NCBI RefSeq assembly: GCF_000354175.2
Contig: NC_022349.1
Location: 1,290,001 to 1,322,000, forward strand
Source: Vibrio alginolyticus NBRC 15630 = ATCC 17749
GTDB taxonomy: Bacteria > Pseudomonadota > Gammaproteobacteria > Enterobacterales > Vibrionaceae
Length of the DNA stretch: 32,000 nucleotides
Direction: 5' to 3'
Both the position numbers and the translations under genes were made by a program. Position 1 is the stretch's first letter. Each line of letters begins with the position of its first letter. Below the pieces are notes generated by a model. The model worked only from the letters and a program-made list of their open reading frames with translations, was not told where the DNA came from and searched no databases. Below, one piece after another: positions 12,442 through 31,950 of this stretch.

Positions 12442-13456
12442 TCATCACCTCTGCAGTGGCTGATTCGACGACTGAAACAGATTCGATAGCCGCGAACTTT
12501 TTAAGATTTCCCACAGCGTAACCTTCCATACGGATATGGTTTTGCTTGAAACGAAGCTCATCTTCATCGTTTTTCTGCTTACGCCACTGAGTGCCTTCTT
12601 GCGTCAGAATCTGTAGGTTCTTGGTATTGGTAACCCAAAGTTGATCAGCCGGGAAAAATGGTGGTGTGTAAGCCTTTTTGCCAGCAATTGTCTTGGCTAG
12701 GCTTTGGGCCGCTTTATGCTCTGTTGGACTATCGGCAGCCTCAAGTAAGCGGTGCTGCTCAGCCGCGACTAGATTCGACCCAACTAAAACAACGAGATCT
12801 GGGTCTTGACGATGTTCGGGAGCAATCGTCGTGTTGATTAGATCTTGCGTAAGTGAATCAAGATTCTTGTATGAATCAGTCGCAGTGCCTGTTGGGTCAA
12901 GCTTTGCTGATGCGAGTACCTGGCTAGATCTCTTCTCTTTAACAATCGTGAGCCAGCCTTTATTTACATCCTGGCCTAATGGATTTTTAATCGGGTCCGT
13001 ATTAGTTGCGATAGACGTACCGTTAAAACCGACACGCAACATATCCAATGCAAAACGACGAGAAATCGCGCTTTTCATCATGCTCAACCAGTGACCTTTA
13101 GAGCCAGAGTTTGCCCATTGCGTCATAGTTTCCCAAAGGATGTGTGCTCCTGAATCTGTCTTTGTAAGCTCGTAGGTATTACCACTTTGGCCCACTTCCA
13201 CGCTAAAACGTCCCGAACCAGATCGACCGGTCGAAAGGCCATCATCACCAACATCAACAACCTGACCTTTGATTTGCTGAACTGGCAGCAATGAAACCAT
13301 ACCTAGGAAAGCATCCGATTCCATAATTGCTTGACGTAGCTTAGTTTCCATTGGGGGCGTCAAGTTAAACGACTGTGTACCTTGCGGAGCATTTGCGGCG
13401 GATAACGTCGCTGTACAAAACTCTTGTAAATAACTGGTAGATAGTGCGTTCAGCAT
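12434..13456 (-). CDS. N: Major capsid protein, gpN-like
   Basis: 340 aa. Recognisable blocks shared with P2 gpN: ...LRVGFNGTS..., ...GWL..., ...QDPDLVVLVGSNL.... Synteny agrees. Confidence 0.85.
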   Translation of the reverse strand: MLNALSTSYLQEFCTATLSAANAPQGTQSFNLTPPMETKLRQAIMESDAFLGMVSLLPVQQIKGQVVDVGDDGLSTGRSGSGRFSVEVGQSGNTYELTKTDSGAHILWETMTQWANSGSKGHWLSMMKSAISRRFALDMLRVGFNGTSIATNTDPIKNPLGQDVNKGWLTIVKEKRSSQVLASAKLDPTGTATDSYKNLDSLTQDLINTTIAPEHRQDPDLVVLVGSNLVAAEQHRLLEAADSPTEHKAAQSLAKTIAGKKAYTPPFFPADQLWVTNTKNLQILTQEGTQWRKQKNDEDELRFKQNHIRMEGYAVGNLKKFAAIESVSVVESATAEVMNG

Positions 13457-14322
13457 TAAAACATCTCCTTAGATGAGAAAGATTCACTAGCACCTGATGG
13501 ATCTGGTTCCTGGTCAGGGACTTCTTGTGATAGTTCAGCAAACTTAGTTTCTAGTCCGTTCACTTTCTCAAACAACGGATTTAGCTTTTCTTCCAGCGCA
13601 GCGGAAAACTGCTCGACCGTCGCATCTTTGCTTGCTACTTCTGGTGTTTCTGGTTGTTCAGGTGTGTTTTGCAAATTGAACTCTTCTTTTAGTTCTTGCT
13701 TAAACTCACCTTTGAAAGCAGAAAACTGCTCTTTTAGTGCGACTTTTAATTGTTCTTCGGTCACGTTGGTGCCCTCTGCTGTTGATAGCGTTTCTGGCTC
13801 TTCATCGTCAGAAGAGAAAAATTCATTGAGTGCCGCAAAAAAGCGGTCTTTGCGAGTAAAGCAATCTGAAAAGTCCACCTCTTCTAAATGGCTTGCTTTG
13901 ATCTCGGTGGTTTCCCCATGAACACGAGAGAATTGAAGGAGCGATGTTCCTGTGGAGGCTGGGGAGTCAGTCGCAGCTAGGCCCATTAGATAGCAACGCC
14001 CTTCCCCCTTGTAGTCGGGATTTGGCTCAATAGATGTGAAAAGTTTTTGTTTTTTACGGTTGGCTTCAAGCAGATAGTCATTCGGCTCTAGCTTGGCGAA
14101 CAGACGTAATTTTCCGCCTTGTTCCTCCGCTTTTACTTCAACCACTCGGCCCCAGTTTTCACCGTAACCGTAAAATCGACGATGCTCAGGCCAAATTAGT
14201 GCGGTGTACTCATCCATCGAATAACTAGCGGCCATTTGCTCAATCCAATCACGGGTTATTTTACGCCCGTCGACGGTCGGTCCTTCTGTCGCGATGATTT
14301 TCCACTCACTAATCTTTGGCAT
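13456..14322 (-). CDS. O: Capsid scaffolding protein/protease, gpO-like
   Basis: The N-terminal block [21 protein letters not shown] parallels P2 gpO. The C-terminus is acidic and helical. The ATG at 14322 is preferred over the TTG at 14343. Confidence 0.8.
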
Positions 14323-14408
14323 TTTTGTACTCAAACTTGTCAATCACATACGGTTCGAGCCAACAATACGCCTTTGAATGTGTCGTTTCAGCTACTTCAA
14401 TTCCTTGT

Positions 14409-14435
14409 AATTCGGATACATTTACTATCCGAATT
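14409..14435. promoter_or_regulatory. 10-bp perfect inverted repeat AATTCGGATA-N7-TATCCGAATT in the divergent O/P late control region
   Basis: Read directly from the sequence. Centred about 66 nt upstream of the terminase ATG (14488). Confidence 0.4.
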
Positions 14436-14487
14436 CATCCGAACTTTGCTTAGTCATCTGCAAGTTTTCGGCGCGTATGATGCGCTT

Positions 14488-16275
14488 ATGGCATATTCTC
14501 CCGAAATACGACAAGCCGCCCGAGCACTCTATTTGAAAGCTTGGACGCCACGTGAAATCGCTACCGAACTGAACCTGAATAATGAGCGCATCATTTATTA
14601 CTGGGCAGATAAATTCGGTTGGCGCGATATGTTGCGTGAACAAACCATTGATGAAGCGATAGCAAATCGAATTCAAACACTGCTTGAACTTGTTGACCCC
14701 AGTAAAAACCAACTAGACATGCTCGATCGGCTTATCAAGCATCACGCTGCATTAAAGAAACAAAGGGCACAAGAAAAGCAGCAAGGTGAGCAACCTTTAA
14801 ATACAGGGAATAAAAAGCACGACGGTACGAATAGCCGTAACAGCCAGAAATCTAGCAGTAATTCAAAGTCTACCAAGAAACGTAAAAGTAAAAAGAATGA
14901 CATCAGCGAACTGAGTGAAGATGACTTTGTCACATGGCATGACTCCCTGTTTGCCTATCAGCATGTAATGCGCAACAACATAAAACAGCGTATTCGAAAC
15001 ATTCTTAAGTCCCGCCAGATTGGCGCAACTTACTACTTCAGTGGTGAAGCGTTAGAAGATGCGATTCTGACCGGCGATAACCAGATCTTTTTGTCAGCAT
15101 CACGAGCTCAAGCGGAAGTTTTCCGCAGCTACATCATTGCTATTGCAAAAGAGTTCTTAGACATAGAGCTAACTGGAAACCCGATCATTCTCTCCAATGG
15201 TGCTGAACTTCGTTTTTTATCTACCAATAGCAAAACCGCGCAAAGTTACCACGGCCATGTTTATGTAGATGAGTATTTCTGGATACCGAAGTTTGACGAA
15301 CTAAACAAACTCGCTTCGGCAATGGCTACCCATAAAAAATGGCGTAAAACCTACTTTTCGACACCATCATCGAAAATGCACCAGGCATATCCGTTTTGGA
15401 CGGGCGACCAATGGCGAAAAGGCAGAGACTCACGCGCCAAAATTGAGTTTCCAACGTTCGATGAATATCGCGATGGGGGTGTACTTTGCCCTGATAAGCA
15501 GTGGCGATATGTCGTCACGATTGAAGACGCTGCTGCAGGCGGCTGTGAACTATTTGATATTGAAGAACTGAAGGACGAATACAGTAAAGACGATTTCGAT
15601 AACCTGTTTATGTGTATCTTCGTCGACGGCTCTTTGTCTGTATTCAAATTCTCTGACCTCGAAAAAGGCATGGTTGACTCTGCCCACTGGCAGGACTTCA
15701 AGCCGAAAACAAAATCACCGTTTGCCGGGCGTGAAGTATGGTTGGGTTATGACCCTAGCCGAACGCGAGACAATGCTTGTTTGGTAGTAATAGCTCCACC
15801 GGCAGTTGCAGGTGAAAAGTTTCGTGTCTTAGAGAAGCACTACTGGAAAGGACTTAACTTCCAGTACCACGTGAGTGAAATTGAAAAGGTATTTCAACGC
15901 TACAAAGTCACTTACATAGGCGTTGATACTACAGGCATTGGTGGCGGTGTTTGGGACTTAATTAAGAAAAAGCACCCTCGTGAGGCCCACGCCATACATT
16001 ACAGCAACGAAAACAAGAATCGCCTAGTAATGAAGATGATCGATATCGTAGAAGCAAAACGACTGCAGTTTGATGCCGAACACAAAGACATTGCTATGGC
16101 ATTTATGGCGATTAAACGAGTGCCGACCAATAGCGGTAACGCTATGACCTTTAAAGCAGAGCGAAGTGAAACAACAGGCCACGCTGATGCGTTTTGGGCC
16201 ATTTCACACGCCATTATCAATGAGCCGCTAGACCACAACACACCAACGAAATCAACCTGGGCGACTGCAGCATGA
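14488..16275 (+). CDS. P: Terminase large (ATPase) subunit, gpP-like
   Basis: The true start is [19 protein letters not shown]... at 14488 (595 aa; P2 gpP is about 590 aa). The upstream extension in the ORF track overlaps the scaffold gene. Contains the [18 protein letters not shown] block. Confidence 0.85.
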
Positions 16276-17303
16276 ACAATCAAAAAGACAAACTAGTACA
16301 ACAGGAGCAACATGTGGAATCGGTTTATCACCTTGACTCCACACCTGAGGCAATTGACTCAACGAGTTGGATGACTTCATATTCTGAGCTTTTCTATAAC
16401 GACACTGATGGTTACTGGGAACCTCCAATCTCACGCCAGGGCTTAGCAGAAACTTCACGTGCAAACGCCTATCACGGGTCTTTACTTAAAGCTCGAGCAA
16501 ATTATGTTGCTGCCCGTTTTATTTCAGGTGGCGGTTCAAGACGTCGGCAGATTCAATCTTTTTGTAATAACTACTTCACGTTTGGTGATGCCGCATTTTT
16601 AAAAATCCGCGACCACTTCAAGCGTGTTGTGCGCTTGTTTCCTCTACCGACCATGTATCTACGTAGACGTAAAAATGGGGACTTCGTTTTGCTAGAGCGA
16701 GACAACAAGCAACGAGTATACAAAGAGAATGACATCATTTTTTTGCCTCAAGAAGATCTGCAGCAACAAGTTTATGGATTACCTGACTATCTAGGTAGTT
16801 TACAAAGTAGCTTACTAAACCGTGATGCAACGCTATTTCGTCGTCGCTATTACAAGAACGGTGCACACATGGGATTCATTTTTTACGCCACGGATCCAAA
16901 CCTTAGTGATGACGACGAACAAATGCTGAAGGAAAAAATCGCGAGCTCCAAAGGGGTGGGTAACTTTAGAAGTATGTTTGTTAATATTCCAGGCGGTGCG
17001 GAAAAAGGGATTCAGCTAATCCCGGTGGGCGATATCGCGACAAAAGATGAATTTGAGCGAATCAAAAACATCACTGCGCAAGATATTCTCGTAGGCCATC
17101 GCTTCCCTATAGGAAAAGCAGGAATAATTCCCCAGGGAACGACTAATCTGGGTGACCCCGTCAAAATTGGCAGTGAGTATGCCAAAGACGAAATCATACC
17201 TGTATGCGAATTAATTATGGATGAAGTTAACAACGATCCAGAGATAAGAAATATCAAAAATCTACATTTAAAATTTGATACTACGTTTGGAGAATGCTCA
17301 TAA
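16272..17303 (+). CDS. Q: Portal protein, gpQ-like
   Basis: 343 aa. Its ATG overlaps the terminase stop. The P-then-Q order on one strand opposite O-N-M-L matches P2. Confidence 0.8.
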
Positions 17304-17368
17304 ACCTGTACAAAAACACAGCCCTTTGACGTATCATTATTTGGTCAGTCAATAAGTTAGGTGCTTGT

Positions 17369-17620
17369 ATGAGAGTATTGTGTCCGGAGTGTGGTTGTAA
17401 AAGCCGAATTCAAAAATCCAATCGACTATCCAATAGTCATGCCGATTTATATTGCAGTTGTAGTGACCCAGAATGCGGGCATAGTTTTGTGATGAACTTG
17501 TCTTATAGTCATACTTTAAGCCCATCGGCAAAAACAACTAGTCAAATAGCTTTTGATTTATGTAAGGCGTTGCCGCCAGAGGCACGACAACAGCTCAAAC
17601 ATCAACTCTCGATACTATAG
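17369..17620 (+). CDS. ogr: Ogr/Delta-family zinc-finger late transcription activator
   Basis: CPEC-x22-C-x4-C spacing (CPECGCKSRIQKSNRLSNSHADLYCSCSDPEC). 83 aa. Confidence 0.8.
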   Translation: MRVLCPECGCKSRIQKSNRLSNSHADLYCSCSDPECGHSFVMNLSYSHTLSPSAKTTSQIAFDLCKALPPEARQQLKHQLSIL

Positions 17621-17848
17621 TGAATCTTGTATAAACGCCGTGCTATCTACTTCAGAAGCCATCTCGACAATGCTCAAGATGGCTTTTTGTTTTTCGGAGT
17701 CCAACTGCCCTTTTGTATCAGCCAGTATTAAGCCAGCAATATATGCACCTGCCGCTCTAGTCCTCTCTGTTGCCTCACTATTAGCCACACCATCAATGAC
17801 GATTTCTAAAGCAGACAACAAGATATCGTTTTGATTTTTATTCGACAT
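17615..17848 (-). CDS. Small acidic helical protein behind an SOS-box promoter; candidate Tum-like antirepressor (function unproven)
   Basis: The preferred start is MSNKNQNDILL at 17848, preceded by AAGGGTG. The longer GTG-initiated version would run through the LexA box. Confidence 0.5.
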   Translation of the reverse strand: MSNKNQNDILLSALEIVIDGVANSEATERTRAAGAYIAGLILADTKGQLDSEKQKAILSIVEMASEVDSTAFIQDSL

Positions 17849-17879
17849 ATCAACACCCTTACCAATCATCAGTGAAATA

Positions 17880-17899
17880 TACTGTATATCCATACAGTT
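17880..17899. promoter_or_regulatory. LexA (SOS) box TACTGTATATCCATACAGTT overlapping a minus-strand promoter
   Basis: CTGT(17882-17885)-N8-ACAG(17894-17897). On the minus strand TGGAAA (17899-17904)-N17-TATATT (17876-17881) brackets the box. Confidence 0.75.
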
Positions 17900-17935
17900 T
17901 TCCACAGTGGTTTTTAGATACCAGTCACTAGTTTG

Positions 17936-17948
17936 TTATGACGACACA
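17936..17948 (+). repeat. Left copy of the 13-bp direct repeat TTATGACGACACA bracketing the cargo segment
   Basis: Exact match to 20775-20787. The flanks are also similar (GTTTG/GTTC before, AA after one variable base). Confidence 0.7.
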
Positions 17949-18216
17949 TAAAGTAGCTAAAACGTATCTCTGCTGGAGAATGTTAGTTGATTAGCAGTGA
18001 GGAGATTTCATTTTGTAATTACTCATTTGAAGCATTTCAATTTTAAAGCAGTATTGCTGCATGACCTTCAGTTTGAAGGTTACTTTTCAATCAAACAAGA
18101 AAGCTGAACACTGATTAATATCACTAATTAAACATCTGCTAATTGAAGAGAATTATTAAAGGTTGCAATATCAGTATTGAAAATTATGTTTTAACACAAG
18201 CAACAATCTGACTTTT

Positions 18217-18681
18217 ATGAGAACTATAACAACAGAAATTCTATTATCATTATTACTTGGAGCTGTGCCGATAATATTGCTCAGCAATCAACCTGATTTT
18301 TCAGCGGCAGAAAGCTTATCGTCTTTGAATCCTGGTGACATTGTACTCAACTACTTCTTATACTTATTATGTATTCATTTAGTTATTTGGTTTTTAAATA
18401 GTCAAGTTTTAAAAACAAACCAGTCTATTTCAGCAACGCTACAAAGGGCACACGAGTTCACTCACAAGCTCGGGTTTGCCATTCATGGTGTTTATCGTGT
18501 TATAGCAGGTGCTGTTCCAGCGGCAATTTGGTTTGAAATTGATAAGCATGGATTTGTTCAAGGTTGGCAAGCGATAACTATTTTCAGTGTGGTTTTATCA
18601 ATATCTAGCTTTATCGCTAGTGTAGCTTTAGCCAAAGCTACTAACTATACAGCACCAAGAGCACTTCTTTTCGGTAAATAA
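18217..18681 (+). CDS. Integral membrane protein (about 4 TM), unknown function
   Basis: 154 aa with four hydrophobic segments. AT-rich cargo context. No good Shine-Dalgarno sequence. Confidence 0.5.
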   Translation: MRTITTEILLSLLLGAVPIILLSNQPDFSAAESLSSLNPGDIVLNYFLYLLCIHLVIWFLNSQVLKTNQSISATLQRAHEFTHKLGFAIHGVYRVIAGAVPAAIWFEIDKHGFVQGWQAITIFSVVLSISSFIASVALAKATNYTAPRALLFGK

Positions 18682-19303: not shown

Positions 19304-19882
19304 TCAATCAAATGGATCTGTCAGATTAGAAGAAAATACGAGTCCATTAAGCTGATTTTGTTCACACATAGCCTTGAACCTCTCTGTACAGTATAAGTTG
19401 CTGGCCCCTTCTAATCTTGATTTAAAGATCACTTTATCTTTCACATCATCATCAATGAATGCAAGAACCTCTAACCCATCAGGGCTTCCATATGAGATCT
19501 TCTCTACACACTTTTGTCTATCTTCTTTTCCAAAAGTCAGCGATGTATATAAATACCATTGTTCACTTTGATAATTGACAGGTAAAAAATCCCCGCTTTC
19601 AGATAAGAAACTATTTAAAGCTTCATATGCTCTCGGCGATAAAACAAGATATGTTCGTAACCATAAGCTAATATCAGGCAATACGGAGTTATCGGTTAAT
19701 ACATCTTCAAACTCGACCTCCGCAGACTTCCAAATATCTTTCAGAGATTTATTTTCAACAGCCTGCAATAAGATTCTCTCAAAATAGTCGAAATCCCCCA
19801 ACTGGGTAGCGATTTCATCTGGGCCAGAACATACCGACTGAAACTTAGTTAAATCATCTGTAATTTTATAAACCGTCATCAT
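19304..19882 (-). CDS. Cognate immunity protein for the AHH nuclease (DUF1629/Imm11-like by resemblance)
   Basis: Its ATG overlaps the toxin TGA (GGATGATGA, an ATGA overlap). The block LVLSPRAYEALNSFLSESGDFLPVNY resembles polymorphic-toxin immunity families. Confidence 0.6.
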   Translation of the reverse strand: MMTVYKITDDLTKFQSVCSGPDEIATQLGDFDYFERILLQAVENKSLKDIWKSAEVEFEDVLTDNSVLPDISLWLRTYLVLSPRAYEALNSFLSESGDFLPVNYQSEQWYLYTSLTFGKEDRQKCVEKISYGSPDGLEVLAFIDDDVKDKVIFKSRLEGASNLYCTERFKAMCEQNQLNGLVFSSNLTDPFD

Positions 19883-20610
19883 CCTTTCCAAACTTCATTC
19901 TTAGCTTCCAAGACCTCTTTAGGGTAGGTGCCACTCTTTAACTCCATTTTGACCCGAAGTAAGTTAGCCTCAAAGTGCTGTTTACTCGGAATACCCTTCG
20001 AAAATTTGGAACTAATCCAAGTTTCATAATTAAATGTATGGATCGAACGGTGAGCCGGAGACTTAGGTGCTTCCCAGTTAAAGTCCGTATGCTTCGCATA
20101 ATTTGTTAACCAAACACCATTTACGGGCGCATTTATGCCAATTTTATGCATGTGCAAATTTAATCTTGCGGCTCTCATTTCTGCTTTTCTAAACCTTCCC
20201 GAGCCAGGAATGATATGGTGAGGCTCATGGTTTTTAGTTGGTTTAGGCTCTCCTGCAGCGGTTAGATTATTAGCTAGTTTCGTCGTCGGATGATGCTTTT
20301 CAACGAACAACTCTTTCGCATTTTTTTTTAAGTTTTCTGCAGAGTACGATTGCAACTTAGCTTGCATATCTTCAACTCGAGCATGAGCAATGAGTTCAAT
20401 CCTCATTTTTTTCAAAAACCTCAAGTCTTGTGCTTCAAACTGCAATCGTTTTGCTCTTTGCTGTTCAGTTTCACCCGCAGGTGGAGCCACACGATACTTG
20501 CTATAGAAATCGTCGACTAACGCATCAAAACGATCTAAGGCCAACTCAGCTGCAGTTGGATTACTAGGACGATTCGTTTTTCGTCCAACTATACTCAAAT
20601 TATGCTTCAT
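19879..20610 (-). CDS. AHH-type HNH/EndoVII-fold nuclease toxin with no recognisable delivery domain
   Basis: C-terminal motifs HEPHHIIPGSGRF ... GINAPVNGVWL ... HRSIHTFNY. The preferred start is MKHNLSIVG at 20610, with GGAGGG 8 nt upstream. Confidence 0.7.
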   Translation of the reverse strand: MKHNLSIVGRKTNRPSNPTAAELALDRFDALVDDFYSKYRVAPPAGETEQQRAKRLQFEAQDLRFLKKMRIELIAHARVEDMQAKLQSYSAENLKKNAKELFVEKHHPTTKLANNLTAAGEPKPTKNHEPHHIIPGSGRFRKAEMRAARLNLHMHKIGINAPVNGVWLTNYAKHTDFNWEAPKSPAHRSIHTFNYETWISSKFSKGIPSKQHFEANLLRVKMELKSGTYPKEVLEAKNEVWKG

Positions 20611-20774
20611 ACTCGTATCCCTCCAACAAACAAAGCCGTTGGATAACATTCACATAACTGACGAGCAAATAATCAATAGCCTTTATGTGGCCTACAGCTC
20701 AGATTTTTATGCAAGCAATAGCACTTTAAATCAACTTTAAGAAATAGCGGTTCACTACTCTAACCTTTAAGTTC

Positions 20775-20794: not shown

Positions 20795-22882
20795 CTAACT
20801 CAATATTGGAAAAAGCCGCCCCTCAAGATAATCTGCCGTAATGCTATGCCAATAAGAAAGCTCACTTTCATCAACTTCCATGTGTTGTATAGATTCATGT
20901 AATAGTGATTGCCAATAGGACTGATTCTCCTTAAATCGCTGATATTCAGATTGATAGAAGTGGCTCGCGTCTTGTTTTATATCGCTCAGGTCCAAATCCC
21001 TGCAGTTCAATGACCACCCTCTTGCACCAGCAGCCCAAACCATAAACTTGTCTACTTTATCCTTAGCCAGTTCTCCCTCAAACGTAATGCAGAAGCGATT
21101 GCTCGTATTCACGTGTACTCCCCTGCTATGCAAGTTCTGACTCAGCTTTTCGGCCTGCTTTTCCAAACGGATGACTCTCTGATAAAGCTTGTTCTGATAC
21201 TCCTCAGATTTCTGCTGCTTTTTGGCGATCGCTTTGGCCTTGATGGTTTGCTCTTTGGCATTTCGTAGCTTGCGGATTTGCCGCTTAATTGGCTTTTTCC
21301 ACTGCTCAAGTTTGTAGCCCAACTCCTTAATTATTGCGGTCATATTGCCAGCTTCAAACGAAGCAAGAGTTTCCCAGGCAGGAGCTCTTGAGCACTTCGC
21401 GATATTGTATCTATTTCCCTTGATTAGCCCTTGATCAGCATTTTCACCTTTCGCGGCATAGCCAACAGCCTTGATAATGTAGGAACCGGCGGCTTTTGGC
21501 TTTTTGATTCGCTCTAGTTTCGCAAATCCATGTCCCCATATTTTTTCAAGTCGCTTAGCCCAAGGGCTAAAGAGATGCTCTGGTACCGTCCAGCGTAGCA
21601 AAATATGAACGTGCGGATTAGGCTCTCCATCTTCATTAGCTGGACACTCGGCTACCCATATGTAATGGAAATCAGCAGGCAAGTAAGTCGGGCCAACATC
21701 GCCGGGCTGAACATGTTTAGCAACTTTCTCCTGAGATAAGTCGCAGTACTTTCGTCCACTATCTTTATCAACTTGGATGGTATGGTCCGCAACCCAGCCG
21801 CGTTGATACATTTTCTTTGCGCCATCAAGAAAACGAGAGACTTCTTTACCTATTGTTGTCTCTAAAGTTTTTTCCATCGAGAACTCTTGCTTGGGCTTTT
21901 GTTTAAGATCGCAATATGGACCGACTATGACATTGCCCTGGTTCATAGCTTTAACACGCTTACTATCTGAGGTTGGAAACAGCCAGTATTCTCCACCAAT
22001 ATCCGTGATTGGTTGGCCAACTTTCTTTTCGCCACGCTTGGGATGTATTGTCACCATGTTGCGCTTATAGATTATTGGGTGATGCGATCCCATACTGACA
22101 CACTCACTTCCATCCAACATTCCACCGAATATGGCCATCCGTTGTGCCTTGGTGAAAGTCAGCGTCAGAAAAGTAGAGAAACCACCATGGCAAGCTGCAG
22201 TGTAAGCCCCTGCCTCAAAGATTTTAGAAACAGAACGGGACGTCAGCTTTTCCGAGAACCTCTCACCACTGTTTTCCGCAGGCGCAGCACTAGATGGCGT
22301 TTCGGTTACCGCCTGAAACTTATAAGTTTCATTCCAAGACCGGTGCATTAGCTGCATTGAAATAGGAATCTTTTTAGGTTCGCCTTGTCCTCGTTTTCCA
22401 TTCTGATTGAGAATGGCAGGTTTGGAGCGCTCGTTCGTTTCATACAAAGCATCATGGCTAAAGTTGGCGTCGGCATTGCTGATGATACTTTTAGGGCGTA
22501 GAGACTTGCTCAGACTCATCAACTGCTTAATTTGCTTGTCTTTTCTGTGGCGAAATTTCTCTGTCGGACTTTTGCGCCCTTTGACTAGCCTATACTCTTC
22601 GGCGATTCTCGCCGCCGCTTCGCGGTCGTGTTTCGAGCAATAATTTACAGATTTATAGAAGTCAGTTCGCTCTTGAAGATCTCGTTCGCGCTTAGACTTT
22701 CGATTGGGAACACGGTCATATATCGCTATTTTTTTGACCATGCCACTATCTAGAAGTGCTTGTTCTTGGTCTGAGTAAATTTTGGAACCTAAAAAACCAG
22801 CATTATAGCTGGCGTCATTTTTCCTGATTCGGTCCAGGGGCATCACTGCCCCACCGATATAGAGAAGATCAGATTGGTTCAT
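20795..22882 (-). CDS. HUH rolling-circle replication initiator (P2 gpA position)
   Basis: 695 aa. HUH-like motif NPHVHILLRW and a Tyr motif GSYIIKAVGYAAKG. Last large gene of the early operon. Confidence 0.6.
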   Translation of the reverse strand: MNQSDLLYIGGAVMPLDRIRKNDASYNAGFLGSKIYSDQEQALLDSGMVKKIAIYDRVPNRKSKRERDLQERTDFYKSVNYCSKHDREAAARIAEEYRLVKGRKSPTEKFRHRKDKQIKQLMSLSKSLRPKSIISNADANFSHDALYETNERSKPAILNQNGKRGQGEPKKIPISMQLMHRSWNETYKFQAVTETPSSAAPAENSGERFSEKLTSRSVSKIFEAGAYTAACHGGFSTFLTLTFTKAQRMAIFGGMLDGSECVSMGSHHPIIYKRNMVTIHPKRGEKKVGQPITDIGGEYWLFPTSDSKRVKAMNQGNVIVGPYCDLKQKPKQEFSMEKTLETTIGKEVSRFLDGAKKMYQRGWVADHTIQVDKDSGRKYCDLSQEKVAKHVQPGDVGPTYLPADFHYIWVAECPANEDGEPNPHVHILLRWTVPEHLFSPWAKRLEKIWGHGFAKLERIKKPKAAGSYIIKAVGYAAKGENADQGLIKGNRYNIAKCSRAPAWETLASFEAGNMTAIIKELGYKLEQWKKPIKRQIRKLRNAKEQTIKAKAIAKKQQKSEEYQNKLYQRVIRLEKQAEKLSQNLHSRGVHVNTSNRFCITFEGELAKDKVDKFMVWAAGARGWSLNCRDLDLSDIKQDASHFYQSEYQRFKENQSYWQSLLHESIQHMEVDESELSYWHSITADYLEGRLFPILS

Positions 22883-23855: not shown

Positions 23856-24395
23856 TTAGGCTAAGCCCGGAAGTGGCGCACCGTTGGCGAGGAAATCTGT
23901 GCCCATTTGCATGAGTGGCTGAAAGCCGGTGGTGCGGTTTTCTAAATCGTTGACGAACAAAACTAAGTTGCCGATGGCCGCTTGAACCTTGGCAATGGTT
24001 TTGCGCTTTTGACTGCGGGGTAAACGGTCTGCACTGCACATGTGCATTGCATCGCTAGACAGCTCACCTGAATATTGGTTGTTAAGTAACGTGCGCTCTA
24101 AAAGGTTCTTATCTTCCCCGTCTTGAGGTAACTGAACCGTCACGACACCTAGATCAGCAAAGAGTGTGTTGACAATGGTGTAATCGCCGGATTCTTTACT
24201 CAGCAATGCCAAATCCACAGGGTCCAGTTTGTGAGGCTGTTCTGGGTTTAGCTTGTTACGCAGCATTCTCCCAGTCAGGCCAACGCGTGGAGCCAGCTTT
24301 TCCATATTGTGATTGATGGCGAAGTCGCAACATGCAGCGTTAAAAGATTGCTGTTTGCGTTCGCGGAATCCGCACATAGCGATATTTGAGTCCAT
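23856..24395 (-). CDS. cII: CII-like regulatory protein (186 CII / CP76 family resemblance)
   Basis: The preferred start is MDSNIAMCGF at 24395. Position directly after the cox-like gene matches 186/K139. Confidence 0.55.
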   Translation of the reverse strand: MDSNIAMCGFRERKQQSFNAACCDFAINHNMEKLAPRVGLTGRMLRNKLNPEQPHKLDPVDLALLSKESGDYTIVNTLFADLGVVTVQLPQDGEDKNLLERTLLNNQYSGELSSDAMHMCSADRLPRSQKRKTIAKVQAAIGNLVLFVNDLENRTTGFQPLMQMGTDFLANGAPLPGLA

Positions 24396-24505
24396 GATCC
24401 ACACTCTTACATGAAAGGCGGTACGAGAATGACAACCAACGTAAACACATTTAGCCACATTAGGCTGTGCATTTTAGCTAGAACAAGAGAGTAAAGGCCC
24501 ATTAC

Positions 24506-24718
24506 TTACCCAAGTGCAGCAATGGCTTCACGTGCCGCCATTTCGTGCATAGCAACCATGTTAATCAATGGCTTATCGCGGCGTTTGTCTTTGGGCTTGA
24601 TGATGACGCGACCTTCAGTCACGTATTGCTTGATGGTGCCCATAGGTAAACCAGTAAGGCGGGAGTATTCTTCGTAAGTCACATATGGACTTAGTGGAGG
24701 TATCTTGTACGTTAACAT
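24506..24718 (-). CDS. cox: Cox/Apl-like small HTH regulator/excisionase
   Basis: 70 aa from MLTYKIPPLSPYVTYEEYSRLTGLPMGTIKQYV, with AAGGA upstream. First gene of the early operon, divergent from the repressor. Confidence 0.6.
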   Translation of the reverse strand: MLTYKIPPLSPYVTYEEYSRLTGLPMGTIKQYVTEGRVIIKPKDKRRDKPLINMVAMHEMAAREAIAALG

Positions 24719-24866
24719 GGTGATATCCTTGTATTTATGTCTATCTTCTTCGGTTGTCTCTTGCTTTGGTCGGCGTGACTTCCGAAACACACAAGAATTA
24801 TTGATCGTCATTCTCGAACTTTCAACAAAAAATGACAAATTAATTCGAAAACGAGAACTTTAAGTC

Positions 24867-25505
24867 ATGAGCATTCGTAAAATAGAACCTTTCGATTATT
24901 TGAAAGGCACTGATTTCACAGAAAATTTGAAGGATTTGACGGGATGTAAGAACTTTCAAGAAATGGCGTTCGTATATGGCGTACCAAAAAGCACTTTTAG
25001 CACTTGGAATACTCATAATCGAACTTCCCATGAACTCATGGTAAGAGCTCATTTAGCTTTGGGAATCCCAATGGTGGATTTGGCGTTAAAGCCAGAGGAC
25101 CGGTTTAAGGCTCACTCAGCGACAAAATGTACTGCCGAAGAAGCAAGCGCTACAACTTCACCTAAACACAACTCAGTCCAGATCAAAAGCTATTGCCTGA
25201 CCAATGGGGAGCTTTTAGATACTGGTGAGTTACCTTACGCTATCCGCAGGTTTAACAGCTTTAACCTCAAAGCTGACGCGACAATTGAAGTTGAAACTAA
25301 TGAAGCTATATATCTCGTTGACAAAAGCTCTACAAACCCAGCTTCGGGCAAATACTTAATAGATATTGACGGTACTTTGTCGATCAATCATATCCAGCGC
25401 TTACCAGGCAAAAAACTGGCTGTTGTGTTTGGTGATAGCACCGTAGAAGTTTCAGAGAAAGCTATAAAAGTAATTGGTCGTGTAGCAGTCACGCTAAAAA
25501 CATAG
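24867..25505 (+). CDS. cI: CI-like immunity repressor
   Basis: N-terminal Cro/CI-type HTH (KNFQEMAFVYGVPKSTFSTWNTHNR). The C-terminal beta-rich domain ends IKVIGRVAVTLK, which looks S24-like, but no GDSM-type Ser motif or Ala-Gly site is evident. Confidence 0.7.
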   Translation: MSIRKIEPFDYLKGTDFTENLKDLTGCKNFQEMAFVYGVPKSTFSTWNTHNRTSHELMVRAHLALGIPMVDLALKPEDRFKAHSATKCTAEEASATTSPKHNSVQIKSYCLTNGELLDTGELPYAIRRFNSFNLKADATIEVETNEAIYLVDKSSTNPASGKYLIDIDGTLSINHIQRLPGKKLAVVFGDSTVEVSEKAIKVIGRVAVTLKT

Positions 25506-25627: not shown

Positions 25628-27181
25628 ATGATTATCGATAAAGTTGACATTTCGAGGTTTAGAGCTTTCGAGAATACGGCATTTACATTAGGTGAATGGG
25701 TTACTCTAATAGCAGGCCAAAACGGCACCCAAAAGAGCACATTATTAGGGATGTTATCCCAACCGTTTACAATAACTGATGAAGATCATCCATTACATGG
25801 TGAATTACCGTTATCAGGAGACAATTTTCGCTCCAGATTCAAAGATAAGTTTCGCTTATCTCCAATATTTGACCAAGCCAAACAACATGAGTGGACTCTA
25901 CATTTAAAAAACAACAATAAACCTTTTACCCTTGAAAGTATTTCTCGAGATAAAGAAAAAGGAAAGATTCGTTTTTGGAGAAAAGGCGATCGGTCTGCAG
26001 GAAGTGGCTATATCCAACTACCAGTTATTTACCTTAGCCTCAAACGATTGATTCCAATAGGTGAAGAAGATGATTCTAAAATATCAACGAGCACTGATGT
26101 CACCCTAACCGAAGAAGAAAATGTTTGGTTCTCTACCTACTATAAAAAGATAATGATTAATCATTCAGAGGTATTAAACTCTGTTGATTATGTAAAAAGT
26201 CCAAACAAAGCTACTTTAGGTGTTAGCACAAAGACATATGATTGGAATACAAACTCTGCAGGCCAAGATAATATAGGCAAAATTTTATTAGCCATCTTGT
26301 CTTTCAAACGATTGAAAGACAAGTATGGCGAGAAGTATGAAGGGGGTATTTTAGCTATAGATGAGATAGATGCAACATTGTATCCTGGCTCTCAAATTAA
26401 GTTACTTGATTCTTTTATGGAAATTTGTCGAGATTACAAAATCCAAGTAATTGCGACAACGCACTCTTTAGAACTACTTAAAAAGGCAGATGCTCTTTCA
26501 AAACGTAAAGCCAAAAAGGTAAAAATCATTTATCTTAAAAAGCAGGATGGAAAAGTTCTTATAGATGACAATCTTGAATATGATCGAATACTTCATAATT
26601 TAAAGTTATCACTAGGAGAGCCAGTACCGCCTAAGCCAAAACTTACAATTTATACAGAAGATCCTGAGTGTATACATTTTGTGAAGGCATCACTAGGAAG
26701 GACTGTAAATAACATTGCCTTTTCAGATATAAGTTTAGGCTGTGGTAATTATGTTCAAATGGCTACAAAAAAAGTTCCAACTTTTACATTCCCGCATTCC
26801 ATCGTTGTCTTGGATGGGGATGCAGCTCCTATTTTACAGAAAAGGCGCCTCAAAAATTTTATATGCATACCTGGGGAGCAAAGACCTGAAGGAACTTTAG
26901 CTAATTTCTTGCATAACCTACCTGAAGCAGATTCATTTTGGACATCTAAGAATCCAGACTATTCTAAACAACATTGCTTTCTAGATTTTACTCTTAACGA
27001 TATATTATTAGATCGCGGTAAAGCAAAAGCTTGGTACAACAGACAATTAGGAACAAATAATTGGGGGCGCCATGCCAGTCACCTCTATAAGCGATATTTT
27101 GAGGCATACCCAGAAGTAAAAGAAGATTTTGTTTCTAGATTCAAGAAAATTCACGAAGAAATATTGAAACATACCGAATAA
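25628..27181 (+). CDS. ABC-type ATPase with C-terminal Toprim-like domain (OLD-family / fused PARIS AriA-AriB-like)
   Basis: Walker A LIAGQNGTQKSTLLG. Signature-like NSAGQDNIGK. Walker B GILAIDEIDATLYPG. H-loop VIATTHSLELL. C-terminal LTIYTEDPECIHF ... SIVVLDGDAAP (a Glu plus DxD, as in Toprim). Confidence 0.6.
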   Translation: MIIDKVDISRFRAFENTAFTLGEWVTLIAGQNGTQKSTLLGMLSQPFTITDEDHPLHGELPLSGDNFRSRFKDKFRLSPIFDQAKQHEWTLHLKNNNKPFTLESISRDKEKGKIRFWRKGDRSAGSGYIQLPVIYLSLKRLIPIGEEDDSKISTSTDVTLTEEENVWFSTYYKKIMINHSEVLNSVDYVKSPNKATLGVSTKTYDWNTNSAGQDNIGKILLAILSFKRLKDKYGEKYEGGILAIDEIDATLYPGSQIKLLDSFMEICRDYKIQVIATTHSLELLKKADALSKRKAKKVKIIYLKKQDGKVLIDDNLEYDRILHNLKLSLGEPVPPKPKLTIYTEDPECIHFVKASLGRTVNNIAFSDISLGCGNYVQMATKKVPTFTFPHSIVVLDGDAAPILQKRRLKNFICIPGEQRPEGTLANFLHNLPEADSFWTSKNPDYSKQHCFLDFTLNDILLDRGKAKAWYNRQLGTNNWGRHASHLYKRYFEAYPEVKEDFVSRFKKIHEEILKHTE

Positions 27182-27187
27182 TAAAAA

Positions 27188-27208
27188 GGCTCCTAATGGA
27201 GCCCTTTT
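27188..27208. terminator. Bidirectional hairpin terminator between convergent genes
   Basis: AAAAA-GGCTCC-TAAT-GGAGCC-CTTTT. Overlaps the methylase stop codon. Confidence 0.6.
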
Positions 27209-28094
27209 ACTTTAGTGGTTTACCAAGATTTTTTAACTTTCTCAGTTCATTAAATGAGATGTCAGGTTTAAACAATACCTTATGGATAGTTGGGCTATGA
27301 ATGATAAGCTCAGAGCCTTTGCGTTTTGTTTGTGCCGTATATGTTAGACCAAATGGTTGTGGATCAAACTCTGCGTATATACCAGCAATCTCGGGAGTAT
27401 CATCATAGGTTACAATCCAAGGATGCTGAATATTTCTCACACTGCGGTAAAGACGATAGTGATCATCATGCTTAAAGAAATTTTGGTAAAGACCTTTGCC
27501 TTTAACATAGTAAGGCGGGTCGATATTAACGAGACATGGGCCGTCGATATCTGGTAGGTATTCATCAATAAACAATGTAGCGTCGACATTAGTTAAAACT
27601 ATGTTTTCCCTACGCGCAGCAATAGCCCTAATTTGCTGAGTCAATCTTTCTTTGTTATATCTACAGTCTAGTAGGTAGTTACCATTTTGCTCTAGACCAC
27701 CGATCACACCAGCTTTAATGATCCCAGAACGGTTTGTTCTATTTAAGAAAAACGTCGCAAATCCCAATTGAAGAGAGTTAGTCTTGTCATTGGAATAAAC
27801 TTCCTTTTGTCTGAACCACTCTTCTATTGTAACGTCGGTGTTTTCTATCAACTGACAAAGCTCATCAGTTCGATTTAACACGCTATACCAGAAAGCATGA
27901 ATCGCAGGGTCTAAATCGTTAACCCACACATTTTCAACATGCCCTTCTAAAAGTAGATACCATGCGATTGCACACCCACCGGCGAATGGCTCCACGTACG
28001 TTCCCCCCTCAAGCCCATTTAGCTTGAGAGTCTCCACGACATATGCGGTAAGCTTGGACTTCCCACCTGGATACCTTAGCGGTGAATAAAACAT
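27207..28094 (-). CDS. Dam-family (D12 class) N6-adenine DNA methyltransferase
   Basis: LRYPGGKSKL, VEPFAGGCAIA (FxGxG) and VNIDPPYYVKG (DPPY), in the alpha-class motif order. Confidence 0.85.
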   Translation of the reverse strand: MFYSPLRYPGGKSKLTAYVVETLKLNGLEGGTYVEPFAGGCAIAWYLLLEGHVENVWVNDLDPAIHAFWYSVLNRTDELCQLIENTDVTIEEWFRQKEVYSNDKTNSLQLGFATFFLNRTNRSGIIKAGVIGGLEQNGNYLLDCRYNKERLTQQIRAIAARRENIVLTNVDATLFIDEYLPDIDGPCLVNIDPPYYVKGKGLYQNFFKHDDHYRLYRSVRNIQHPWIVTYDDTPEIAGIYAEFDPQPFGLTYTAQTKRKGSELIIHSPTIHKVLFKPDISFNELRKLKNLGKPLK

Positions 28095-29647
28095 TATCTT
28101 TCCTTCAATTCAATCAGGACTTTTAGCAGGGGCGTAAGCATATCCCAAAAGCCATTTACAAATCTATAATCAATTTTATGGGTTTCATGTCCATGCATAT
28201 AGCTGTTCAACGTATCTAAACTGTGTTCATTGTTTGGCTGAAGTAGCTTACTGATAACCTTGTTTGCTTGTGTTTCCTTTACATGACTATCGCACAAAAA
28301 CTTAAGACGTTGCTGGAGGATAGTATGATTGTAGTCTTTGTTGTACTGTTTGGCCACGAGCTTTTCTAATTCATTTCTACGAATAAAATCATCGACTGAA
28401 AGATCAAGAAATACGCGAAGAGTTATAGATGCCGAATGAGTATAAAGATGCACTGGCACTTTTTTTAGTTCAGCAAATAGGCTATTGAGTTTTGCGCTAT
28501 GCACCTTGATCGTCGTTTGGGGAATGACCATTCGAAGTCTATTACTCTTAAGCTTAACTGGTACGTCCAACTTAATTTGAGTAGAACCAGATACACTAGC
28601 TTGCTCATTAACGTTATTGGTTGTTTCAGCTTTAGGTTCCGTACCATTACTAGGACTGTTCGGTTCGATTTTTTCTGGAGAGTCTATCGATGTTGAAAGT
28701 ACTTTTTCTTTTCCATTTTCTGGGAAAGTAACTTCTGGAAGTACAGCAAATATACTCTCGTTCCTTTCTGGTATCGAACGAGTGTTCACAGCAAAGTCTA
28801 AGTCATTGGGTTCAATATTAAACATCAGTTTAAGAAACTTACCATACGCATGGAGAAAACTATCTTCGTTCGAAGTTATTTTAACTTTCATTCCATCAAA
28901 CTGAACTCCCCACCGATCTCGAACTGACTCACTAGCAAACCAACGCTCTAGAATAGTCATAGATATACGGTTGCTATAAATCAGCTCTTTTTCTTCCTCA
29001 CTCATCAAGTCTGTAACTTGTTTACGAGTAGCTAAATCACGCAACTGAACATATCTGAGTGCCTGAATTATCTCTGAACGAGTAAAACCTGTGACTGATA
29101 TAATTTTATCAATATCGTGTTCGTACTCATCATACAAACTCACAATGAAGCGCTGTTGCTGCAAACGCTGCCACGGTTTCTGAATAGAGCTAGTCGAATG
29201 ACGCTGTAAAACATACCAGCGTGTTGCTTCTAGGCTTGGTGCTACACAGACTTGCACTTTTTCAATGTCGTTTCGGTCAATGAGCTTTGACTGCTGCAAA
29301 ATGAACTTACGAATTGATTTAGGCGCTTTCTCTGGATTCCGCAGCAGTTTGAGAGCCAAAATACGACGATTTCCTTCTGCAACAATATAGCGTTCAGTCT
29401 CGTCTTTCCAAACAACAATGGGTTCAAAATCCATAAAGCCGAGTTTGATGATCGATTTAATGAGCTCAAAAAAGCTCGCTTTGTCTGAAGGTTCATTGAT
29501 AATTTCTTCAGCAAAGTCAGCTAACTTTATTCTCGATTGGCTTTCTGCCGTATCAAAACGGGGGTTTTCTTTCCAGAGCTTCAAATAGTCAACCGAACGG
29601 GGTGTACGCTTTTCCCACCACTTATTTTTGTTACCAACCACTTTCAT
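28094..29647 (-). CDS. ParB/Srx N-terminal-domain protein with long linker and uncharacterised C-terminal helical domain
   Basis: YIVAEGNRRILALKLL (ParB GxRR box). Ser/Asn/Pro-rich linker (residues ~315-355). C-terminal domain with LNSYMHGHETH. Its stop overlaps the methylase start (TAATG). Confidence 0.6.
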   Translation of the reverse strand: MKVVGNKNKWWEKRTPRSVDYLKLWKENPRFDTAESQSRIKLADFAEEIINEPSDKASFFELIKSIIKLGFMDFEPIVVWKDETERYIVAEGNRRILALKLLRNPEKAPKSIRKFILQQSKLIDRNDIEKVQVCVAPSLEATRWYVLQRHSTSSIQKPWQRLQQQRFIVSLYDEYEHDIDKIISVTGFTRSEIIQALRYVQLRDLATRKQVTDLMSEEEKELIYSNRISMTILERWFASESVRDRWGVQFDGMKVKITSNEDSFLHAYGKFLKLMFNIEPNDLDFAVNTRSIPERNESIFAVLPEVTFPENGKEKVLSTSIDSPEKIEPNSPSNGTEPKAETTNNVNEQASVSGSTQIKLDVPVKLKSNRLRMVIPQTTIKVHSAKLNSLFAELKKVPVHLYTHSASITLRVFLDLSVDDFIRRNELEKLVAKQYNKDYNHTILQQRLKFLCDSHVKETQANKVISKLLQPNNEHSLDTLNSYMHGHETHKIDYRFVNGFWDMLTPLLKVLIELKER

Positions 29648-29773: not shown

Positions 29774-29793
29774 CACTGTATATAAAAACAGAT
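29774..29793. promoter_or_regulatory. LexA (SOS) box CACTGTATATAAAAACAGAT upstream of the ParB-like/methylase operon
   Basis: CTGT(29776-29779)-N8-ACAG(29788-29791). Lies 127 nt upstream of the ParB-like ATG. The 17-mer ACTGTATATAAAAACAG is identical to 30895-30911. Confidence 0.7.
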
Positions 29794-30893: not shown

Positions 30894-30913
30894 TACTGTA
30901 TATAAAAACAGTA
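30894..30913. promoter_or_regulatory. LexA (SOS) box TACTGTATATAAAAACAGTA overlapping a plausible int promoter
   Basis: CTGT(30896-30899)-N8-ACAG(30908-30911). TTGCAA(30871-30876)-N17-TACTGT(30894-30899). The box ends 15 nt before the int ATG. Confidence 0.75.
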
Positions 30914-30927
30914 AAGTTTATACTGAG

Positions 30928-31950
30928 ATGACTACACGAAACCTTAAAGACGGCAGTAAAAAACCTTGGCTATGCGAGTGCTACCCACAAGGTCGAGCAG
31001 GAAAACGTGTCCGTAAACGATTTGCAACCAAAGGCGAAGCTACCGCTTTTGAGTTGCATCTAATGAAAGAGGTGGATGACAAACCATGGTTAGGGAGTAA
31101 ACCCGATCACCGTCGATTATCTAACTTGGTGGAACTTTGGTACATGCTCCACGGAAAGAACCTGAAATCTGGAGAACATACTCGTCTACGTTTAGGGAAT
31201 ATGGTTGAAGACTTAAGCGACCCGATCGCAGCTCAACTAAACTCGAAACACCTCGCGACTTACCGAGCAGCCCGCATGAACAAGGGGCGTGGCCAAGAAC
31301 ACAAAGAGCTTTCTATTGCATCCAACAATGTGGACTTTGGGTTGCTAAAAGCGATGTTCAACAAGTTAATAAAGCTTGGTGAGTGGAAGCTACCAAATCC
31401 GGTTAGCGGTATTGAGGCAATCAAAAAGCCTGAGTCTGAGCTTGCGTTCCTGACCGAACAAGAGATTCATCTCCTGTTTGAAGTAGCTCAACAAAGCCCG
31501 ATTGGTGATGAGCTAACGAAGATATATAAAGTTTGCCTAGCGACTGGTGCGCGTATCAGGGAAGCTATTTATCTGAAGGGTTCTAACTTGACGAAATACC
31601 GCATTACCTACAACAACACCAAAGGTAAGCGCAACAGAACAGTACCAATTTCTGAAGAGTTGTATAACCAAATTTATAAGCCAACCAATGACCGCCTTTT
31701 TACTTGCGGTTACGGCGTAGCATACAAGTGGTTAACTAAAGCCCTCCCCCATTTACCAGAAGGACAAGCGACTCACGTTTTACGTCATACCTTCGCAAGT
31801 CACTTTATGACTAATGGCGGCAACATTCTTGTTCTTAAGGAAATCCTCGGTCATCAGCACATCGATCACACTATGATTTACGCTCATTTTTCGCCAAATC
31901 ACCTGAGTGATGCCGTACGTTTCAACCCACTAACAAATCTTAGTATCTAG
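30928..31950 (+). CDS. int: Tyrosine integrase (P2/HP1 family)
   Basis: The preferred start is MTTRNLKDGSKKPWLCECYPQGRAGKRVRKRF. Catalytic motifs ATGARIREAIYL, HVLRHTFASHF and LGHQHIDHTMIYAH. Confidence 0.9.
   Translation: MTTRNLKDGSKKPWLCECYPQGRAGKRVRKRFATKGEATAFELHLMKEVDDKPWLGSKPDHRRLSNLVELWYMLHGKNLKSGEHTRLRLGNMVEDLSDPIAAQLNSKHLATYRAARMNKGRGQEHKELSIASNNVDFGLLKAMFNKLIKLGEWKLPNPVSGIEAIKKPESELAFLTEQEIHLLFEVAQQSPIGDELTKIYKVCLATGARIREAIYLKGSNLTKYRITYNNTKGKRNRTVPISEELYNQIYKPTNDRLFTCGYGVAYKWLTKALPHLPEGQATHVLRHTFASHFMTNGGNILVLKEILGHQHIDHTMIYAHFSPNHLSDAVRFNPLTNLSI

Follow-up and report, generated by a model that had tools for sequence, protein, structure and literature searches.

In coliphage 186, the small protein Tum, which is under LexA control, inactivates the immunity repressor CI (Lemire et al., 2011, PMC3121763), and the genome record of 186 annotates its expression from the LexA-controlled promoter p95. 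The GfoA, GfhA, GftA and FsoA proteins of the Gifsy and Fels-1 phages are also small and LexA-controlled, and bind and inactivate non-cleavable repressors; two of them, GfoA and GfhA, each act on a pair of repressors that differ in specificity (PMC3121763). In linear plasmid-like vibriophages, modules of a transcription factor and a small open reading frame (TF-smORF) place a small orphan protein that counteracts cI non-proteolytically beside a divergent transcription factor gene (Silpe et al., 2023, PMC10432266). Here we analyze a stretch of 32,000 nucleotides from Vibrio alginolyticus NBRC 15630 = ATCC 17749 (NC_022349.1, positions 1,290,001 to 1,322,000; the window, with positions counted from its first letter), which has a P2-like gene layout and, judged by sequence, is essentially Vibrio phage ValB1MD-2, a member of the Peduoviridae with V. 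alginolyticus as host (MT662115/NC_055862). The two are 100% identical over a 1-kb stretch around a minus-strand gene at 17615-17848, which encodes a 77-residue protein that we call S. Because a predicted LexA box precedes this conserved gene and the CI repressor of the phage cannot cut itself, we put S forward as the leading candidate for the switch that turns DNA damage into prophage induction.

The S locus shares much of the organization of the 186 system. Like Tum of 186, TumA of PSP3 and STM2728 of Fels-2, S is a small protein encoded after rep on the early strand, in a transcription unit of its own, and as in 186 and PSP3 the gene lies before the portal gene. The landmark for this slot is the gene for the Rep/gpA-like replication initiator (20795-22882, minus strand). 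The proteins fall in the same size class (60 residues for TumA, 62 for STM2728 and 77 for S). A LexA box covers the core promoter in 186 (TACTGTATGTTTATACAGTA) and PSP3 (TACTGTATAAATATACAGTA) as it does for S, the Fels-2 gene also stands behind a LexA box, and all these systems pair the small protein with a CI of the 186 type that lacks an S24 domain. The equivalence to the tum position proposed in the first-pass annotation of the window is therefore sound in terms of rep, strand and portal, with the difference that four accessory genes separate S from rep. Two further differences set the locus apart from the Tum-type systems: the LexA-controlled operons of 186, PSP3 and Fels-2 include a DinI homologue, whereas S has no DinI-like partner, and the S gene converges on an ogr gene that carries a LexA box of its own. 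All Tum homologues carry the DinI-like domain PF06183, which matched neither S nor its neighbors. S would thus be a functional analogue, not a homologue, of 186 Tum and PSP3 TumA.

Among vibriophages the closest counterparts are orf12 of K139 and kp18 of Kappa, which belong to the same family as S, occupy the same slot and have the same LexA box over their promoter (P12 in K139). The K139-type phages differ in having a divergent gene for an Xre-type helix-turn-helix (HTH) protein (orf11 in K139) where the window has accessory genes, and this pairing of an HTH gene with a divergent small gene resembles the layout of the TF-smORF modules. Those modules are, however, SOS-independent and act on autoproteolytic cI, whereas the S gene has a LexA box. 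With the Gifsy and Fels-1 antirepressors S shares its small size, a gene outside the immunity region and direct LexA control, which for S is predicted; they differ in coming from lambdoid phages, in acting on another repressor family and in having a proven function where that of S is proposed. No sequence relation between S and these antirepressors was seen in family searches. Small antirepressors that are controlled by LexA and act on non-cleavable repressors are already well known as a class, of which the S family would be a new and unrelated member.

A predicted LexA box lies within the putative promoter of S

The predicted LexA (SOS) box TACTGTATATCCATACAGTT occupies positions 17880-17899, with an exact CTGT-N8-ACAG core at 17882-17897. 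Its agreement with the LexA consensus TACTGTATATATATACAGTA is 17/20, the second-best score among the ~32,000 positions of the window; the only higher-scoring 20-mer is the box in front of int, and the LexA site of 186 p95 reaches 18/20 on the same consensus. The window has four exact matches to CTGT-N8-ACAG where 0.53 would be expected, and 100 shuffles always gave fewer; each of the four stands between genes, beside a gene start.

To follow the box across relatives, S homologues were gathered from a phage collection, GTDB genomes, IMG/VR and assembled contigs. Of 41 homologous sequences, 39, K139 orf12 among them, have the exact core at a distance of 42-85 bp upstream of the matched residues. 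These represent 28 distinct upstream sequences, which can be aligned only as far as ~40 bp upstream of the box. The arms, CTGTA...ATACAG, are invariant; the flanks vary, and changes in the spacer stay within the LexA consensus (TATGGATATA, TATTAATATA and TATATATATA, among others). The box is conserved in orthologous promoters above background level. It also precedes distant members of the S family that are 32-38% identical (loci L073-75 and L084-86) and is found in phages PQ189358 and 1.202.O, and the S homologue of PQ189364 follows CTGT-N8-CCAG, a natural variant of the core that is common. In the deposited K139 record, which makes no mention of LexA, orf12 is assigned a promoter named P12, and the box covers it.

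The box fills the 17-nt spacer of a predicted sigma-70 promoter on the minus strand (17876-17904), with a -35 hexamer TGGAAA at 17904-17899 and a -10 hexamer TATATT at 17881-17876. Both the box and its placement across this spacer had been noted in the first-pass annotation, and our promoter scan recovered the same pair of hexamers, which are weak. The two hexamers are conserved among the ValB-type relatives; the K139-type relatives have TTGAGA-N17-TAATAT instead, and there the LexA box overlaps the -10 element. A 9-bp palindrome, CCACAGTGG, at 17902-17910 covers the upstream half of the -35 hexamer together with adjoining upstream bases; it contains an ACAG half-site and is conserved in most ValB-type upstream regions. 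Downstream, a Shine-Dalgarno-like AAGGGTG (17854-17860, minus strand) ends 5 nt before the ATG at 17848, which is the start common to all homologues, and the columns of the ribosome-binding site and the ATG are conserved in the upstream alignment. The start given for S in MT662115 (record position 21732, record coordinates in this region being window coordinates + 3839; 17615-17893 in the window) falls inside the LexA box and is unlikely. On these sequence data, we consider LexA control of the S promoter to be very probable.

S belongs to the uncharacterized family phrog_5581

S is an acidic protein (pI 4.27), and its AlphaFold2 model, built on a 21-sequence alignment, consists of three helices with a mean predicted local distance difference test score of 82, a predicted fold that amounts to a generic three-helix bundle. 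These properties and the Shine-Dalgarno sequence match the acidic helical reading frame described from the letters of the window, and the remark there that the protein is unlike anything recognized also holds, since S resembles nothing characterized: its only match is to the hidden Markov model of phrog_5581 (E = 6.3e-33, residues 2-73), a family with no assigned function. S is 64% identical to its homologues K139 orf12 and Kappa kp18. Pairwise ratios of nonsynonymous to synonymous substitution (dN/dS) within the family are ~0.1, so that by this measure S is a coding gene under purifying selection. At 50% identity, the proteins returned by an exhaustive profile search fall into only 38 clusters, and almost all are ~50-120 residues long; all named close homologues come from Vibrio or Photobacterium. 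The phages vB_ValM-yong1 and Salinivibrio SMHB1 have the same LexA box, ribosome-binding site and first codons before small acidic proteins (75 and 53 residues, respectively) that have diverged greatly and give only weak matches to the family profile.

Membership of S in the DinI, Ant, Bro or defense families was considered and rejected, as there was no match in Pfam, NCBIfam or PADLOC. For DinI in particular, PF06183 did not match and the S model is all-helical; the DinI fold is alpha/beta. A sequence search of the PDB with S found nothing. The GenBank records of K139 and Kappa give neither a function for orf12 or kp18 nor a LexA site, and orf12 has been labeled 'hypothetical' since the genome record AF125163. 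Our literature search found nothing on the function or LexA site of K139 orf12, although the text of the K139 genome paper may comment on the P12 palindrome, and a search for ValB1MD found nothing on the S gene.

The proposed partner repressor is of the 186 type

The immunity repressor CI is encoded on the plus strand at 24867-25505, divergent from a Cox/Apl-like gene (24506-24838, minus strand; its true start is probably internal). This gene and that for a 186-type CII (23856-24458, minus strand; PF06892) make up the start of the early lytic operon (23856-24838, minus strand). CI contains the domains PF07022 Phage_CI_repr (E = 4e-17) and PF16452 Phage_CI_C (E = 1e-13), both of which were defined on the CI of phage 186, and the Pfam scan found no Peptidase_S24 domain, in agreement with the earlier remark that the repressor lacks obvious autocleavage motifs. 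Its C-terminal domain is 37% identical to the 186 counterpart, and its only relatives among PDB structures are the 186 CI entries 2FKD, 2FJR and 7JVT. The repressor has a conserved surface, G-x-YLIDIDG...LPGKKL, and the CI allele of IMGVR_UViG_2870262238_000005 is 60% identical. By sequence, the CI of the window is a true 186-type CI without an autocleavage domain. In MT662115 the same gene is labeled 'chromosome partitioning protein ParA'.

Induction of such a prophage needs a trigger. The related phage PV94, which carries the same S gene and LexA box, is induced by mitomycin C (PMC3986222); therefore a LexA- or RecA-dependent trigger must exist in such phages. We found no paper that explains the induction of K139 or Kappa by DNA damage. 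No Tum/DinI, Bro or Ant domain was detected by Pfam in the non-structural proteins of the window that were scanned.

S and this type of repressor occur together. CI was found in 37 of the 42 S loci searched, the remaining five having flanks of only ≤6 kb, and every phage genome opened, sampled singly, pairs the S gene with a 186-type CI, so that the co-occurrence of S with this CI type is constant. The prophage loci with S also carry a CP76-type CII, and the S gene there lies between rep and the ogr and portal genes. Among the loci opened, the S gene was never found on a bacterial chromosome outside prophage or satellite contexts.

In the K139-type relatives, the S homologue is flanked by the divergent gene for an Xre-type HTH protein of ~110 residues, no counterpart of which is adjacent to S in the window. 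Such genes are present in K139 (orf11, L001 2407-2745) and in loci L039 (5405-5734), L078 (13219-13563), L079 (9998-10333) and L076 (9380-9766). In L076, the HTH gene is present and the LexA box is absent, an arrangement that fits control of the S homologue by the HTH regulator alone.

S is retained in satellite-like elements

Homologues of S were also found on three satellite-like contigs, L071 (IMGVR_UViG_2908136803_000001; 9.3 kb), L072 (9.65 kb) and L087 (4.3 kb, partial). The gene order in L071 and L072 is int, a zeta-toxin-like gene, CI, a Cox-like gene, a Replicase/PriCT_1 gene and the S homologue; L087 shows only the part from CI to S. Identity to the window is 63% for the S homologue, ~88% for CI and 90% for Cox at the protein level, and 93% for the DNA of the operator region between CI and cox. 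Late and structural genes, ogr and portal among them, were not found within these contigs, and no LexA box precedes their S homologue; the LexA box carried by L072 is near-identical to the int box of the window. These elements keep only functions of integration, immunity and replication in addition to S, and therefore S appears to be tied to the switch and not to morphogenesis or late genes.

From their content, these contigs look like homoimmune satellites of ValB1MD-2-type phages. The satellite P4 encodes a small antirepressor, epsilon, which derepresses a P2 helper prophage by way of its repressor, and satellite-like elements with a box-less S could act on their helper in a similar manner. 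They differ from P4 in that they share the immunity region of the helper, which P4 does not.

Further predicted LexA boxes stand before ogr, int and a defense operon

The gene that converges on S encodes an Ogr/Delta-type zinc finger activator of late genes (17369-17620, plus strand; PF04606, E = 9e-17) and is unannotated in MT662115. The 3' ends of the two genes overlap by 6 bp (17615-17620). A second CTGT-N8-ACAG box (17306-17321) lies 48 bp upstream of the ogr ATG, where it overlaps the probable -35 element of a promoter whose -10 is conserved as TATCAT/TATGAT. Although the box of this phage matches the consensus 20-mer at only 12/20 positions, it is exact in 37 of 41 sequences and occurs in 36 distinct upstream sequences, and its arms are invariant (the K139 copy is at L001 3531-3546). 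This arrangement points to LexA as the factor that silences ogr in the lysogen, a task that falls to CI in 186. Under such gating, lytic infection of undamaged cells would call for a further explanation. The only plus-strand terminator-like hairpin lies at 18062-18082, beyond the S promoter, and therefore the ogr transcript could run antisense through S; the S and ogr transcripts may be fully antisense to each other. An Rfam scan of 17200-18300 found no RNA family.

The best-scoring LexA box of the window (20-mer TACTGTATATAAAAACAGTA, 18/20; 30896-30911) ends 16 nt short of the start codon of int (ATG at 30928), and a near-identical box stands directly upstream of int in phage PQ189364 (L081 1303-1318). 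The integrase may thus be SOS-controlled in this phage; in K139, by contrast, int lies within the cI operon. A LexA-like box at 29776-29791 (15/20), with the same 16-mer as the int box, is located 129 bp upstream of a PD-Lambda-5 defense operon (27207-29647, minus strand), which could be SOS-linked. The operon consists of a 517-residue reading frame (A, E = 5e-189) and a downstream D12 adenine methylase (B, E = 2e-118). Gene A (28094-29647) is intact in the window and split into two coding sequences in MT662115, and therefore the window and the record differ by 1 bp.

Scaffold, terminase and portal genes, in keeping with the P2-like layout, occupy 13456-17303. The window also has two accessory cargo loci. 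One, between rep and S (19304-20649, minus strand), consists of an AHH-family HNH nuclease (PF14412, E = 5e-10) and, after it, a 195-residue possible immunity protein; the other, beside CI (25628-27181, plus strand), encodes an AAA_15 ATPase that resembles the defense ATPases AriA, PtuA and GajA.

Discussion

From the sequence comparisons we infer that LexA binds the S promoter, that DNA damage induces it and, above all, that S acts on CI. In the lysogen, host LexA bound to the spacer box would keep the S promoter off. On DNA damage, RecA-stimulated cleavage of LexA would free the promoter and S would accumulate; S would then bind the non-cleavable 186-type CI without proteolysis and remove it from its operators, which would open the Cox/CII/Rep early operon. 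In parallel, the release of LexA would free the ogr promoter and, in this phage, the int promoter. On the action of S as an anti-CI protein we lean, by a modest degree, towards its being correct.

A number of observations weigh against this proposal. The predicted S promoter has only 9 of 12 matches in its hexamers, and the promoter scan as a whole was not above chance for the region (five sites against 3.8 expected). L076 and four satellite-like loci have no box before their S homologue. Homology to Tum or TumA was tried and rejected: BLASTP gave no alignment, and hhalign returned probabilities of 0.1% against 15 Tum sequences and 0.5% against 80 TumA-like proteins that a profile of three types had collected. 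As S fails this test of homology, it is classed only as a member of phrog_5581. It has no match among the families of Pfam, NCBIfam or PADLOC, and Foldseek found no structure in the PDB or BFVD that matched its model with E < 0.4. The co-variation of S with CI is also loose. Copies of S that are ≥95% identical coexist with CI alleles that are 45-100% identical, the lowest CI identity being 45% overall and 52% over the C-terminal 100 residues, whereas in 186, PSP3 and Fels-2 the TumA sequences have diverged to the same extent as the CIs. The identity of S correlates with that of ogr (rho 0.87) and CII (0.83) more closely than with that of CI (0.64), and the comparison of S with CI is dominated by linkage to ogr. 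Because GfoA and GfhA act on repressors of different immunity, the loose co-variation is compatible with a broad-range antirepressor, and the C-terminal motif conserved among the CI alleles could be the common target of such a protein; as an account of the co-variation, this should be regarded as an excuse rather than as evidence.

The same looseness would be expected if the target of S were a conserved host protein. S could be LexA-controlled without touching CI, as an SOS accessory protein that works on RecA or LexA in the way of DinI/TumB or GIL01 gp7, or that affects a different host process, for instance cell division, with CI inactivated by other means. The LexA-controlled operons of 186, PSP3, Fels-2 and the Gifsy phages do also carry a DinI homologue that is not an antirepressor, and a small, acidic and helical protein is compatible with many binding roles. 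However, S has no DinI domain and is modeled as all-helical, the non-structural proteins scanned offered no other candidate trigger for inactivating CI, and the gene is absent from the chromosome outside prophage and satellite contexts in all loci opened. It is moreover kept in minimal satellite-like elements that share only the immunity and replication modules, and we consider a role confined to the host unlikely, if worth keeping in mind. The satellite-like elements bear equally on the idea that S works with Ogr, as partner or antagonist, or that its convergent transcript tunes ogr by interference or antisense pairing, since they keep S and yet have no ogr, portal or late gene within contigs of 9-10 kb. 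This idea would make sense of the convergence and 3' overlap of the two genes, of the conserved LexA boxes on both promoters and of an ogr transcript that could pass antisense through S as far as the hairpin at 18062-18082. S does track Ogr most closely in identity, but physical linkage alone would give this correlation, and the strong purifying selection on S indicates that the protein matters and not only the act of transcription. We judge a function centered on ogr to be improbable.

That the palindrome is no working LexA operator, but a chance or structural feature or the site of another factor, with S expressed independently of SOS, would agree with the weakness of the predicted promoter and with the S homologues of L076 and the satellites that lack the box. 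It is difficult to reconcile with the rank of the S box within the window, with arms that are invariant over 28 distinct upstream sequences and spacers that vary within the LexA consensus, with the excess of exact boxes beside gene starts, or with the same box before the analogous genes of 186, PSP3 and Fels-2, and we regard it as highly improbable.

If S is the anti-CI protein that we propose, a wider scheme can be drawn, which we offer tentatively and think rather doubtful as a whole. In this scheme, phrog_5581 would be a Vibrionaceae-wide anti-CI family unrelated to Tum, at the center of a multi-promoter LexA regulon in K139- and ValB-type phages that takes in S, Ogr and sometimes the integrase; homoimmune satellite-like elements would hold a LexA-independent copy that could serve to co-induce or hijack the helper, and the Xre regulator would provide a second input in the K139-type phages.

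The mechanism itself is expected rather than surprising; the LexA box before ogr and the homoimmune satellite-like elements are less so. A working box at the ogr promoter would mean that the host repressor, not CI, gates the late genes. If the proposed action of S is correct, S would represent a third unrelated protein family among the LexA-controlled antirepressors of 186-type switches, and the confrontation of a near-invariant S with CI alleles that are 45-60% identical should locate the vulnerable surface of 186-type CI. K139 and Kappa are classical prophages of Vibrio cholerae, and V. alginolyticus, V. parahaemolyticus and V. vulnificus commonly carry relatives of them; deletion or ectopic expression of S would then offer a direct handle on the induction of these prophages.

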